Shown here piece by piece: positions 5,209 through 36,176 of a DNA stretch of 36,176 nucleotides (the first letter of the stretch is position 1; the number at the start of each line of letters is the position of its first letter). The DNA comes from Clostridiales bacterium. Lineage in GTDB: Bacteria; Bacillota; Peptococcia; DRI-13; UBA5745. Both the position numbers and the translations under genes were made by a program. The DNA lies in assembly GCA_009777025.1 (NCBI GenBank), contig WRMS01000003.1:1-36176 (forward strand). The letters are read 5' to 3'. The notes beneath the pieces are model-generated. The model searched no databases and had not been told where the DNA came from. It saw only the letters and a program-made list of their open reading frames with translations.

Positions 5209-5480
5209 ATGACTGCCCTTCTTTTTTTTTTGAGTTATACATTTTTACTATAGGAATCCCTATGTATAGAATCATTTAGGGGATTCATATAATAGAATCC
5301 TTTGCGGGATTCCTTTGCACGAGTTTTTTCTGTTGAAATGGATCGAATTTTCGTTTAACACAGGATTCAAACCTATGTTCAAAATATTCCGTACATTATT
5401 AAAGTAGGAATTATCTTTTCAAATATTGTAAATCTTGCGTACTATGACTATAATACCCTAAAATTGAAAAGACGAACCAC

Positions 5481-8635: not shown

Positions 8636-8664
8636 TTGACAGAATGAGAAACGCGGTCTACAAT
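8636..8664 (+). promoter_or_regulatory. Sigma-A promoter of the T-box leader
   Basis: TTGACA-17 nt-TACAAT. Confidence 0.75.
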
Positions 8665-8690
8665 AGCACAATATGATCCACAAGAAATAG

Positions 8691-9125
8691 AGCGATGAAG
8701 GGGATAAAGTTCCGTACTCGGCGCTTCAGAGAGCTGTCGGATGCTGCGAGACAGCGGCCTGTACAGAACATAACTCACCCCGGAGCTTCCCGCCCGAAAG
8801 GATTGTCCGCAAAAAAGACAAGCAGCGAGTCTGTGACGCAGGATTTTTTGGTACTGGCAAGGCAAGCGACGACAGATGGGAAGGAGCATACACGATGGTA
8901 TGTGACTGAGCAGATGGAGGACGCGGACGCAGCCAGGAGCAAAAAAGACAAGTCAGAGTAGGGGGGACGGTGATCCCACCGTTATCAAAGGACCAGCATT
9001 ACCTGAGCCTATCAGACGATGCCGGATAAGAGGGCGGCGAAGACCCGCCAAAGAGAGTGGTACCGCGGAAGTTGAGCTTTCGTCTCTCACTGTTTTACCT
9101 GACAGTGAAGGACGAAGGCTTTTTC
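8691..9125 (+). promoter_or_regulatory. T-box riboswitch, Leu (CUC) specifier
   Basis: Stem I has the K-turn GCGATGAAGGGG...CCCCGGAGC, an AGAGA box and a GCTG loop, with specifier CTC at 8774-8776. AGTA and CCGTTA elements follow, then T-box GAGTGGTACCGCG (~9055-9067) and a terminator hairpin ending GGCTTTTT. Confidence 0.9.
8809..8952 (+). repeat. Divergent copy of the 130-bp structured element inside T-box stem II, flanked by a 14-bp direct repeat
   Basis: GCAAAAAAGACAAG at 8809-8822 and 8939-8952 (130 bp apart). The internal CAAGGC...GAAGGAG-CATAC..GTATG-TGACTGA...GACGCAG layout matches the repeats at 24.7 and 26.2 kb. Confidence 0.75.
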
Positions 9126-9129
9126 ATTG

Positions 9130-9171
9130 AACGAATCTTCGTTCAGCAGAGGATTCGGACCCGTGCCGAAC
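9130..9171. repeat. 42-bp palindromic repeat, left copy (inverted relative to 11788-11829)
   Basis: AACGAATCTTCGTTCAGCAGAGGATTCGGACCCGTGCCGAAC matches the reverse complement of 11788-11829 at 37/42 positions. Confidence 0.85.
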
Positions 9172-9287
9172 GTTAGATGCGTCCATGCACACACGATTCA
9201 CAGCGGCGCTCATTGATTGTGGAAGGCCGGACGGCTGGGAGGAAATACCGATAAGCCGCCGAAAGTATAAGAAAGAGGTGAAGGGCA

Positions 9288-10952
9288 ATGGAAAAGCTTT
9301 GGGAAATCACCCTGGGGGATCTGCTGGACTATCAGGCGGAGCGGCATCCGGATCAGGACTGCGTCATATACAATGACAGGCCTTTCCGGACTACGTACCG
9401 GGAGTTTCGGGACAAGGTCAATTTGGTAGCCAAAGGTTTTCTAAAACTGGGCGTCAAAAAAGGGGATCACATCTCCATGTGGGGAACGAATGTACCGGAA
9501 TGGCAGCTCGCCTTATGGGCGGCTTCCAAGATTGGCGCCGTCCTGGTGACGGTCAATACCGCGTACAAAATCTTTGAGGCGGAGTACCTGCTGCGCCAGT
9601 CGGATACCCATACGCTGGTCATGACAGAAGGCTTCAAGGACAGCGACTATGTGGCGATCATGCAGGAGTTGGTACCGGAGCTGGAAGGCGCAAGCCCGGG
9701 CGAATGGGAAAGCGATGTGCTGCCCTGCCTGAAGAACATCCTCTTATGCGGCGGCAAGGAGCTGTCCGGTATGCGCAACTGGGAATCGCTTTACGAACTC
9801 GGAAAAGAAATCAGCGACGAGACGCTGGCGGAGGCGCAGAAAGCCTGTCATTTCCACGACGTGGTGAATATGCAATACACATCCGGTACGACAGGCTTCC
9901 CGAAGGGCGTCATGCTGACGCACCTGAACATTTTAAATAACGGTTTATCCATCGGCGACTGTATGAAATTCTCGACGGCGGATAGATTGTGCCTGACTGT
10001 TCCCCTGTTTCATTGCTTCGGTTTGGTGCTGGCAACCATGGCGGCGGTCACCCACGCTTCGACGATGTGTATCGTCGAAGCCTTCAGCCCTGCGGCTGTG
10101 CTGAAAACCATCCATGAAGAAAAATGTACTGCCTTTCACGGCGTTCCCACAATGTTTATCGCGATGATGGACCACCCGGACTTTGCCAGGACGGATTTTT
10201 CCCAAATGCGGACCGGTATCATGGCCGGTTCTCCCTGCCCGGTCAAAGTCATGCGGCAGGTGGTGGATCAGATGAATATGTCAGAAATTACTATTGTCTA
10301 TGGGCTGACAGAGTCTTCTCCCGGCTGTACACAGACCACTACGGAAGATTCCCTGGAATTGCGGGTTTCTACGGTGGGGCGCAGTCTGCCCTTCGTCGAG
10401 ACAAAAGTTGTAGACCCGGATACGGGGGAGGAATGCATACCCGGCGTTCCCGGTGAATTTATGGCCAGGGGATATAATATAATGAAAGGCTATTATAAAA
10501 TGCCGGAAGCTACGGCTGCCGCGATTACGGAAGATGGTTGGCTTCACTCCGGCGATCTGGCGACGGTGGACGAAAACGGGTATTATAAAATTACAGGCCG
10601 TATTAAGGATATGATCATCCGGGGGGGCGAAAACATCTATCCAAAGGAGATCGAGGAATGCTACTATACTCATCCAGACATTCAGGATGTACAGGTGATC
10701 GGCATCCCCAGCGAAGCGTATGGAGAGGAAGTTATGGCTTATGTCATACTGAAGCCGGGCATAAGCATGACAGAGGACGAAGCCAGGGAATTCGTACGGA
10801 CGCGGATCGCCCGTCATAAAGTGCCGAAATACGTAGCGTTCATTGATGAATTCCCCATGACCGCCAGCGGCAAGATCCAGAAATATAAACTCCGTGATAT
10901 GGCAGTGGATATGCTCAAGTTGCATGACGCCGCCAGTATCGAGACAGCGTGA
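9288..10952 (+). CDS. AMP-forming acyl-CoA synthetase (ANL family)
   Basis: MQYTSGTTGFPKG, PLFHCFG, YGLTESSP, GWLHSGD, GRIKDMIIRGGENIYP and TASGKIQK motifs. RBS AAGAGGTG. Confidence 0.93.
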   Translation: MEKLWEITLGDLLDYQAERHPDQDCVIYNDRPFRTTYREFRDKVNLVAKGFLKLGVKKGDHISMWGTNVPEWQLALWAASKIGAVLVTVNTAYKIFEAEYLLRQSDTHTLVMTEGFKDSDYVAIMQELVPELEGASPGEWESDVLPCLKNILLCGGKELSGMRNWESLYELGKEISDETLAEAQKACHFHDVVNMQYTSGTTGFPKGVMLTHLNILNNGLSIGDCMKFSTADRLCLTVPLFHCFGLVLATMAAVTHASTMCIVEAFSPAAVLKTIHEEKCTAFHGVPTMFIAMMDHPDFARTDFSQMRTGIMAGSPCPVKVMRQVVDQMNMSEITIVYGLTESSPGCTQTTTEDSLELRVSTVGRSLPFVETKVVDPDTGEECIPGVPGEFMARGYNIMKGYYKMPEATAAAITEDGWLHSGDLATVDENGYYKITGRIKDMIIRGGENIYPKEIEECYYTHPDIQDVQVIGIPSEAYGEEVMAYVILKPGISMTEDEAREFVRTRIARHKVPKYVAFIDEFPMTASGKIQKYKLRDMAVDMLKLHDAASIETA

Positions 10953-11787: not shown

Positions 11788-11829
11788 GTTCAGCATGGGC
11801 CCGAATCCTGTGCTGAACGATGATTCGTT
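11788..11829. repeat. 42-bp palindromic repeat, right copy; between convergent genes, possible bidirectional terminator
   Basis: GTTCAGCA-15 nt-TGCTGAAC stem. Inverted copy of 9130-9171. Confidence 0.8.
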
Positions 11830-18625: not shown

Positions 18626-18707
18626 TGCATATTCAGAAGTTGTGCATATTCAGAAGTTGTTTTTCTCAGAGAGTGTTTTTCTCAGAGAGTGTTTTTTTCA
18701 GAGAGTG
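18626..18707. repeat. Short tandem repeats (2 x 17 bp then 3 x 16 bp)
   Basis: TGCATATTCAGAAGTTG x2 followed by TTTTT(C/T)TCAGAGAGTG x3. Confidence 0.9.
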
Positions 18708-18714
18708 TTTTTTA

Positions 18715-18743: not shown

Positions 18744-18763
18744 CCAGTAAAATCAATACAAAA

Positions 18764-18990
18764 CCGATGATTAAGAATAGTAATCATAACAGCGAAATCA
18801 CAGAGAGCCGCCGGCGGTGGGAATGCGGTATTTCAAATTATGATGAATGGGCTTAGGAGGGCAATCCAAAAGGCTTATGCCGAGTAGGCGTTGACGAAAA
18901 ATCCCGGTCGTTATACGGGAAGCGCATGATGGTGCGAACACATGGAGGTGGCTAACAGAAAACTTCTGTCCTTATGGGATGGGGGTTTTT
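18764..18990 (+). promoter_or_regulatory. T-box riboswitch, Trp (UGG) specifier, atypical antiterminator bulge
   Basis: CGATGA..AGTA, AGAGA box, GGTG loop and GAA-TGG specifier (18848-18850), then AGTA and CGTTA. T-box position reads GAGGTGGCTAAC. G.U-rich terminator ending GGGGGTTTTT. Upstream of trpS. Confidence 0.85.
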
Positions 18991-24726: not shown

Positions 24727-24909
24727 GGCGGACGACGCAGACAACACAGATAACGCCGTATGGCGGAATAAGAACAAGCTGTTAAGTCTGGCGAAGGAAT
24801 TATTTTGCCAGACAAGGCGTCAAGGAAGGCCGTCGAAGGAGTGTATCCAAACATACATGACTGAGGCGGACGACGCAGACAACGCCGTATGGCGGAATAA
24901 GAACAAGCC
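24726..24909 (+). repeat. Structured ~130-bp element (one full unit plus duplicated 3' end) between yceD and rpmF
   Basis: AACGCCGTATGGCGGAATAAGAACAAGC at 24752 and 24881 (129 bp apart). Homologous to 26235-26529. Confidence 0.9.
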
Positions 24910-24927
24910 AGAAAGGATTGGATTGAA

Positions 24928-26234: not shown

Positions 26235-26529
26235 GCAGACAACGCCGTATGGCGGAAAAAGAGCAAGCCGTTTAAGTTTGGCGAAGAAGTTTTTTCGCCA
26301 GACAAGGCGTCAAGGAAGGTCGGTGAAGGAGTGTATTCAGACATACATGACTGAACCGAACGACGCAGACAACGCCGTATGGCGGAAAAAGAGCAAGCCG
26401 TTTAAGTTTGGCGAAGAAGTTTTTTCGCCAGACAAGGCGTCAAGGAAGGTCGGTGAAGGAGTGTATCCAGACATACATGACTGAACCGAACGACGCAGAC
26501 AACGCCGTATGGCGGAAAAAGAGCAAGCC
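26235..26529 (+). repeat. Head-to-tail tandem of the 130-bp structured element (2 units plus 35 bp); Clostridiales-1-RNA-like
   Basis: GCAGACAACGCCGTATGGCGGAAAAAGAGCAAGCC at 26235, 26365 and 26495. The two units differ by one base (tattcag vs tatccag, in the apical loop). Confidence 0.93.
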
Positions 26530-26544
26530 AAAGGGGGTGGCGAT

Positions 26545-35002: not shown

Positions 35003-36176
35003 ATGACAAGAAAAATCTTAGCCGTATTTGTTTTAGCAGCCATGATACTCACCGGTATGCCCATGACGGCATGGGCGGGCGGTGTGCAGACAGGGACGAA
35101 TACCGAAATCAATGTCTACGGTTCTGTTATAGAGGGACCCGACAGGCCTGTGCTTGTGCAGCCGATCGGTAACCTGGACGGAAATGGCGATGGCGCGGAA
35201 TTTAACCTGACGATTATCTCACAGAGTGGCTTTGCCGCAGGGGATGAGATATACGTCGCCTCCAGACGGTGTCTTGTGGATTATTTCTATTATTGGGATG
35301 GGCAGGGGAACTGGATTCCTTTTGGCAACGCGCCTGGCGACACGATCGGCAATCCCGGGGAGATGCAGCAAACGGACAGTACGTATGCCCTGCAGATCAC
35401 CTATGGCGATATGCTTCGTCCGGTTGGCAGCAGCGAAACGGTAGCGACAGCGAGAATTAAAGTGGTTTCCGTCGCTGCCGGAGTTTCGCAGATCGTCTTT
35501 GGCAGGGACGCGGCGGATACAGCCACCTATGCCGGGGGTGTGATACCGTTTGACGGGCTTAGCCAAATCATTGGACAAAGAAGTTACCCGGCGGAATATG
35601 CCGCTTCCTTAGGCGGCGGCGTACAGACGGGGACGAATCCCAAAGTCAATGTCTATGGCTCCGTTGTTGAGGGACCCGATAGCGCTGCACCCGTGCAATT
35701 TATTTACAGCTTAGACGGAAATGGCGACGGCGAGGAATTTGATCTGGCAATCCTCTCCGAGAGTGGTTTTGCCGCGGGGGATGAGATATACGTCGCCTCC
35801 AGCCGATATGCAGTCGATTATTTTTTTTATCAGGACGCGCAGGGACGCTGGATCCCTTTTGGTAACGCGCCCGGCGACGAGATTCTCCATCTTAGCAAAA
35901 TGCAGCAAGCAAACAATTCTCATGCTTTGCAGATCACCTATGGCGACATGCTCCGTCCGGTTGATGGCAGCGATACGGTAGCGACAGCGAGAATTAAAGT
36001 GGTTTCCGTCGCAGCCGGGACTTCCCAGATCGTCTTTGGCGCGGACGCGGCGGATACCGCCTCCTATGCCATGGGTGTGACGCCGATTGACGGATTAATC
36101 AGAATTATTGGAGTCAGAAGATATCCGGCCGAATATACTTTTTCATTGGGCGGCGTGCAGACGGGGACGAATACCA
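35003..36176 (+). CDS. Secreted/surface protein with ~178-aa tandem repeats (3'-truncated by window edge; not in the ORF track)
   Basis: RBS GGAGGAGGGAG and signal peptide MTRKILAVFVLAAMILTGMPMTAWA. No stop codon up to the window end. GGVQTGTN recurs with Val codons at 35084, 35621 and 36155. Confidence 0.9.
   Translation, partial: MTRKILAVFVLAAMILTGMPMTAWAGGVQTGTNTEINVYGSVIEGPDRPVLVQPIGNLDGNGDGAEFNLTIISQSGFAAGDEIYVASRRCLVDYFYYWDGQGNWIPFGNAPGDTIGNPGEMQQTDSTYALQITYGDMLRPVGSSETVATARIKVVSVAAGVSQIVFGRDAADTATYAGGVIPFDGLSQIIGQRSYPAEYAASLGGGVQTGTNPKVNVYGSVVEGPDSAAPVQFIYSLDGNGDGEEFDLAILSESGFAAGDEIYVASSRYAVDYFFYQDAQGRWIPFGNAPGDEILHLSKMQQANNSHALQITYGDMLRPVDGSDTVATARIKVVSVAAGTSQIVFGADAADTASYAMGVTPIDGLIRIIGVRRYPAEYTFSLGGVQTGTNT

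Follow-up and report, generated by a model that had tools for sequence, protein, structure and literature searches.

A dispersed, gene-less rod repeat in stem II of a leucine T-box leader, and its possible head-to-tail copying from the 3' end

The leucine T-box leader of the window analysed here (the whole stretch of 36,176 nt, contig WRMS01000003.1 of the Clostridiales bacterium assembly GCA_009777025.1) carries in its stem II a copy of a dispersed, rod-like repeat. Membership of the insert in a repeat family, its absence from orthologous leaders, partial copies that lie on one side of full copies at unit spacing, and a covarying rod are observed. Judging from these sequence features, the repeat was likely copied in head to tail from its 3' end rather than moved by cut-and-paste. 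The full reading, according to which a gene-less, ERIC-like rod repeat was copied into the tip of stem II from its 3' end over slightly more than one unit, has in our judgement about as good a chance of being right as of being wrong; if slightly more than one unit was copied, the upstream of the two 14-nt repeats at this site likely represents the tail end of a second unit that was truncated. The features of the locus and the related copies in the window are collected in Table 1.

Table 1. Features of the T-box locus and further copies of the repeat family in the window
Feature	Positions	Strand	Basis
Promoter-like site, sigma-70-type, TTGACA-17-TACAAT	8636..8664	+	consensus match only
T-box leader, Leu class	8686..9090	+	RF00230
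Specifier codon CUC (Leu)	8774..8776	+	Rfam alignment position; same in 4 aligned orthologues
Stem II basal 5' strand and GAA side of S-turn, intact	8789..8799	+	sequence, alignment
GGATTGTCC; able to pair with GACAA of either 14-mer copy	8800..8808	+	
Upstream 14-mer, likely 3' tail of truncated extra unit	8809..8822	+	
11-nt junction, partial unit to full unit	8823..8833	+	
Full rod-like element, closed by TGAC/GTCA	8834..8955	+	R1 score, fold, covariation
Downstream 14-mer, the element's own 3' tail	8939..8952	+	
GTCAG 3' junction, then AGTA side of S-turn and basal G-run	8952..8966	+	orthologue alignment
T-box bulge UGGUACC of antiterminator	9058..9064	+	Rfam alignment
Terminator hairpin with U-run, predicted	9074..9124	+	predicted fold
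Acyl-CoA ligase family gene, 3' of T-box	9288..10952	+	NF009233
Family copy with 33-nt upstream partial copy	24747..24913	+	R1
Two tandem family copies with upstream partial copy	26235..26533	+	R1

The Rfam covariance model RF00230 matches the leader with 80.6 bits (E 8e-18) over all of its 219 positions, including stem I, the specifier, stem II, the IIA/B region and the antiterminator, and its alignment holds the extra length of the locus, 155 bases, in the loop of stem II. This match, the CUC specifier and the loop-held bases bear out the claim of an earlier note, made from the sequence alone, that a Leu T-box hosts an insert in stem II. The score lies under the gathering score of the family (93), and a search of the whole window at that score does not report the leader. 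The terminator hairpin was missed by a simple terminator scan. The acyl-CoA ligase gene matches NF009233 with 752 bits, under the cut-off of 832 for that family. A tRNA-Leu(GAG) was not found in G000, the 85%-complete assembly that contains the window, which counts against the reading given above. The window contains a second T-box upstream of trpS (18758-18976, 78 bits), which is free of the element. An unrelated-looking dispersed repeat lies directly 3' of the T-box terminator at 9126-9192, with further copies at 11788-11829 (minus strand) and 5338-5368 and 51 blastn matches genome-wide at E<1e-3. Elsewhere in the window we noted a 16-nt tandem repeat (18650-18712) and an ORF (35078-36175) with internal repeats of roughly 535 nt and no NCBIfam match.

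An exact repeat search recovered the perfect 14-bp direct repeat described earlier, GCAAAAAAGACAAG, at a spacing of 130; the next-best exact repeat at spacings of 100-159 is 5 nt long, and when the genome was cut into 11,457 tiles of 183 nt, 42 of these (0.4%) had a comparable repeat. The segment just upstream of the first 14-mer, GGATTGTCC, may be either a native strand or derived from the element. The insert is predicted to fold into a rod (z-scores of -4.65 and -5.22 against shuffled sequences for two cuts) with purine-rich internal loops and an apical helix GCATAC/GTATGT, and the fold contains the three inner pairings named in the earlier note (TTTTTTG/CAAAAAA, CTGGC/GCCAG and CATAC/GTATG). 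The structured rod therein proposed stands; its limits, set from repeat to repeat, are offset from those found here, since the outermost TGAC/GTCA helix covaries across copies and the structured unit is accordingly taken as 8834-8955. With one unit removed, folding reproduces the TTGTC/GACAA hairpin that had been described.

Our covariance model of the family (R1), built from 16 copies that all come from other genomes, scores the insert with 130.2 bits over 8831-8958 and the three copies at 24.7 and 26.2 kb with 74-77 bits. The insert and these repeats had been proposed to be kin, a proposal that a model built from other copies might have contradicted by leaving the segment unscored; R1 scores them all. 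A sequence HMM built without the insert gives it 55 bits when the copy at site C35 is part of the model and 13.7 bits (E 0.04) when it is not. The copy at 24.7 kb lies upstream of plsX, directly before a short ORF that we take to be rpmF, and the ORF that follows the tandem copies at 26.2 kb is presumably acpP. Altogether R1 has 102 matches in nine of the 11 genomes of the bacterial family, the number in a single genome ranging from 0 to 40; 23 further genomes of the order, in each of which 102 candidates were scored, gave no match. An alignment of 62 matches made on R1, which hence leans to the model, has 92% of its cells paired and double changes at 29 of 35 pairs, exceeding all 500 shuffles and all slid controls; double changes occur at 23 of 31 pairs in an independent alignment. 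The motif of the apical core is present in an estimated 5,900 stored stretches of the genome collection, with record titles from many phyla. Among the first 80 of 122 such distant loci, which were chosen by the core motif itself, 79 are matched by R1 (E up to 0.05). No Rfam family for the element was detected in the window at gathering score, around the T-box locus at E up to 10, or in 19 relative loci at E up to 5. Literature searches, mostly of open-access journals and without supplements, returned neither a description of this repeat family nor one of a repeat inserted in a T-box. Several copies from G003-G005 (L033, L034, L036, L038, L040, L206 and L246) are interrupted in their 3' arm by a nested insert of some 50 nt, which at some sites is itself tandemly repeated. 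At L031 (161-287, minus strand) the element continues in frame into a gene, presumably rsgA, and may supply its start codon, as in the gene fusions of the Rickettsia palindromic elements (RPE).

The acyl-CoA ligase gene is matched in seven relatives, and no match to it was found in the 80%-complete assembly of the closest relative, G002. Four orthologous leaders (G003, G005, G006 and G007) keep a T-box with stem II, and none of these holds the element; stem II is gone from the leader of G001 (L005, G001:C13), the 5' half (stem I-II) is gone from that of G004 (L002, G004:C13), and the short locus of G008 shows no visible T-box motif. The empty site that the earlier note had proposed to look for is thus found in four of four stem IIs and, together with the R1 score, upholds the insertion of a dispersed element. 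Its proposal that removal of one unit restores the native site was not borne out: the 14-mer is missing from the four orthologous stem IIs (6, 5, 6 and 10 of 14 positions identical) and resembles the tails of the element, being identical at 10 or more of 14 positions in 40 of 54 full copies. Because it matches the element's own 3' tail and the orthologues lack it, the 14-mer is unlikely to have arisen by target duplication. The suggestion that the site resembles the 3' end of the element holds over GTCAG(A) and fails for the whole 14-mer; GTCAG of the 3' junction is common to the element-free orthologues G003 and G005, and since GTCAG-AGTAGG of the window recurs in both, target and element end agree over 5-6 nt. 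The possibility that stem II of G003 and G005 is an old stump of the element found no support, since R1 gives no score there, yet scores a stump in G002. The latter is found at site C35: the allele of G002 (89% identity) is shorter by one unit here and consists of a collapsed stump, which retains the two ends of the element and receives 22 bits from R1; G004 has no element letters at this site. The site upstream of the presumed rpmF is free of the element in three relatives; in G001 it is occupied by a truncated copy from another subfamily. Metagenome scans found no alleles of the Leu T-box at 8686-9090. Among 78 T-box hits in 11 genomes two overlap the element, both in stem II. The second (L026 510-635, corresponding to G001:C8:12459-12584) is a different T-box with the specifier AUC, as read by eye, and with 89.6 bits it likewise falls under the Rfam cut-off; its counterparts in G000:C94 and G002:C148 have a short stem II. 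The orthologous Leu T-box of G007:C8 (L006, about 1560-1830) has a GC-rich insert of roughly 270 nt between stem IIA/B and the antiterminator, to which R1 gives no score.

The 14-mer repeat, offered earlier as the best evidence that the element is mobile, is surpassed in this respect by presence and absence at orthologous sites and by the partial copies of the family. Of the 62 family matches we set aside 16, namely array members that lie upstream of another copy, matches that were short and partial, and a number of copies with a nested insert. The other 46 were tested: 27 have a direct partial copy at most 150 nt upstream and none has one downstream, counts that overstate independence because six of the 46 copies represent one orthologous site. 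Without three arrays, whose last copy was chosen by hand, the figures are 24 of 43 upstream versus 0 of 43 downstream. The partial lies 119-131 nt from its full copy in 25 of 27 cases, the 5' starts are scattered from position 1 to 109, and most partials end right after GACAA(G), before the rod-closing strand, although some upstream pieces (C35, L228 and L193) are internally deleted units or 5' pieces rather than 5'-truncated ones. In 21 of the 27 cases the partial has its highest similarity to the neighbouring copy; three cases are ties, and in three another copy scores better, these last including the T-box partial (29 with its own neighbour versus 30 with another copy). The upstream bias is weaker outside the bacterial family: after 32 of 133 loci were dropped as short, multiple or duplicate, the remaining 101 comprise 13 with a partial upstream only, three downstream only, two on both sides and 83 with neither. 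The 14-mer of the T-box is best read as the shortest case of this family-wide scar.

The surroundings of the copies were counted for 45 of the 46 (one row was lost). The downstream flank is read in sense in 26, in antisense in seven and undecided in 12, an SD-like motif accompanies the 3' end in 16 of 45 and the other end in one of 45, and G-U outnumbers A-C in the copies (94 vs 31). In relatives, copies are found directly 5' of 5S rRNA and tRNA genes, and tRNA genes directly follow copies in four of 60 distant loci scanned. Part of this pattern could be a product of short operon spacers and selection. At L238 (467-592, minus strand) the closing strand coincides with the first four bases of a putative tRNA-Gly gene and the 5' strand is complementary to it, an overlap that hints at target pairing or later compensation.

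We infer a series of enzyme-driven steps from GTCAG(A) onward. A copying enzyme would start at the short match between the target and the element end, GTCAG(A), and run through one unit from the 3' end; it would then jump from the 5' end of the rod to the adjacent 3' tail, or continue round a circle, and an early stop inside the second unit would leave the truncated partial upstream. The fixed 3' end, the unit spacing and the ragged 5' end fit such a single copying event, and this readable scar, with its truncated 5' copy, argues against plain cut-and-paste. We favour an RNA template and a reverse transcriptase (RT) acting in trans, leaning to RNA because the copies are mostly in sense and end beside ribosome-binding sites and the 5' ends of tRNA and 5S genes; alternatively, single-stranded DNA could serve as the template. 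Searches for mobilisers covered the Y1, Y2 and RT families in incomplete assemblies. RT and Y1 transposase had no match in the two element-richest genomes, G001 and G007 (83-85% complete), and neither co-occurs with the element over 34 genomes, many element-free genomes having both. In the G000 assembly no Y1 or Y2 transposase was matched, the Y2 search finding none in controls either, and the sole RT match, L268 1144-2208 (minus strand, G000:C57), is of the group II intron type and under the family cut-off.

Two other routes of entry deserve consideration, both of which we regard as improbable. A 130-nt circle could have recombined by a single crossover with a similar 14-nt sequence that stem II had beforehand, either native or an older stump, and so duplicated the 14-mer. 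Such an event would account for the exactness of the 14-bp repeat, for the tidy TTGTC/GACAA hairpin of the allele minus one unit and for the pairing of 8800-8808 with the 14-mer in the manner of a native strand; GTCAG is moreover shared by G003 and G005, and a "minus one unit" allele does occur at another site in G002. The latter is element-derived, however, with G004 lacking element letters at that site, and the 14-mer occurs in none of the four orthologous stem IIs. Nor would a pre-existing target be expected to share the private letters of the neighbouring copy, as partials do in 21 of 27 cases, or to give repeats that range from 14 nt to a whole unit among sites. The same variable length, and the derivation of the repeat from the element, led us to reject a fixed-length target-site duplication of the MITE type, and a TA target duplication was rejected as TA lies near both ends in only two of 39 copies. 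A MITE-like insertion of a single unit by a transposase in trans, followed by tandem duplication and by collapse of one rod through replication slippage, would agree with the stumps that keep both ends (G002:C38 and G000:C35), with the perfect tandem arrays at 26.2 kb and C99, and with the classification of ERIC, the closest relative, as a MITE in the part of PMC2229807 available. Yet it requires two later events at more than half of the sites, always on the same side (27 vs 0, n=46), and the closing helix differs among copies instead of forming a fixed inverted repeat, while the scarcity of TA ends sets the family apart from ERIC.

It is more doubtful still that the host retains the rod because it serves a purpose in 5' leaders, be it stabilising or processing the RNA or binding a protein, and that the T-box copy tunes leucine regulation. 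Strong covariation and conserved purine-rich loops would be expected of a functional RNA, the sense bias and the location near SD motifs and the starts of tRNA and 5S genes point the same way, both element-bearing T-boxes have it in stem II, and ERIC changes mRNA stability in Yersinia according to the part of PMC2229807 available. The patchy occurrence at orthologous sites, the spread from 0 to 40 matches among genomes of one family and the G001 orthologue of the Leu T-box, which does without any stem II, speak against it. This reading is in any case compatible with head-to-tail copying, which we continue to prefer as an explanation of how the insert arose.

It is plausible, from modelled folds, that the T-box tolerates the insert by looping it out. 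Tolerance is predicted because both strands of the S-turn are intact (GAA at 8796-8798 and AGTA at 8957-8960, as aligned with the orthologues), and the S-turn is the chief functional part of stem II in the part of PMC7583486 available. When the domain is folded alone, the base-pair probabilities of stem II are 0.49-0.99 with the insert versus 0.81-1.0 without it. The minimum-energy fold of the whole leader with the insert does not recover the base of stem II, and forced folds give two nearly equal arrangements (-51.7 vs -50.9), with the register of stem II one base off. Inserts of this kind push real riboswitches under the Rfam cut-off (80.6 and 89.6 bits vs 93), and the insertion of repeats may account for part of the hitherto unexplained differences in stem II length among T-boxes.

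A lineage-specific insertion in a T-box has a counterpart in stem Sa of the glyS leader from Staphylococcus aureus. This stem is conserved and adds 42 nt to the antiterminator/terminator domain. The main text of the paper on it uses neither "repeat" nor "mobile", whereas the insert described here is traced to a dispersed repeat. Head-to-tail units with one fixed and one variable end are also characteristic of retrozymes, viroid-like circles and the IS91/REP rolling-circle elements. Unlike retrozymes, the present repeats matched no Rfam ribozyme family, either at the T-box locus or in 19 relative loci, and they differ from IS91/REP elements in that the G000 assembly has no match to a Y1 or Y2 transposase, with the reservation made above for Y2.

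The closest likeness is to the ERIC/IRU/RU-1 repeats of enterobacteria, which are similarly about 127 nt long, form a long imperfect rod and contain no gene. R1 aligns end to end to 21 of 22 ERIC-core loci, which were chosen by the core motif and include duplicates, with 21-47 bits on one strand; the opposite strand receives at most 9 bits and a core-only locus 12.7, and the aligned sequences have letters in common also outside the core motif. By eye, these loci resemble the reverse complement of the Salmonella RU-1 given in the available part of PMC2759123. A sequence-only profile finds two of the 22, and blastn searches against E. coli genomes, which are too distant, gave no match. From these sequence comparisons the family of the T-box insert looks like a distant relative of ERIC. 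The two differ in several respects: TA ends are present in 10 of 15 ERIC loci versus two of 39 family copies, one-sided partials in 27 of 46 family copies versus none of 14 ERIC loci, which lack the upstream bias, and the closing helix here is variable and adjoins a purine-rich loop, while ERIC is defined by a fixed short terminal inverted repeat. Since its copies rarely have TA ends and show no fixed-length target duplication, we do not class the family as ERIC or as a MITE. As of 2007, the mechanism by which ERIC-type repeats move was without experimental support according to the available part of PMC2229807, and our searches, mostly of open-access journals, found no later work on it. A bolder reading, to which we give little credence, would place ERIC and the present repeats in a single superfamily, spread across bacteria, of mobile elements that involve no protein of their own and use an RNA template. 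The rod RNA would be reverse-transcribed round its joined ends and land where processed RNAs have their 5' ends (at tRNA and 5S, ribosome-binding sites and riboswitch loops), the 5' strand of the closing helix pairing to the target. If true, it would provide a bacterial counterpart of SINEs and retrozymes and recast the view of how ERIC spread.

The RPE repeats, rods of 105-146 bp found inside the genes of tmRNA and RNase P M1 RNA (PMC2229807, in the part available), resemble the present case, by their description there, in that a repeat is tolerated inside a functional RNA; their hosts are tmRNA and M1 RNA, while the host here is a cis-acting riboswitch. Given this precedent, a single insertion in a T-box would by itself be a modest curiosity, and the weight of the finding lies in the copying scar and the link to ERIC more than in the lone T-box event.
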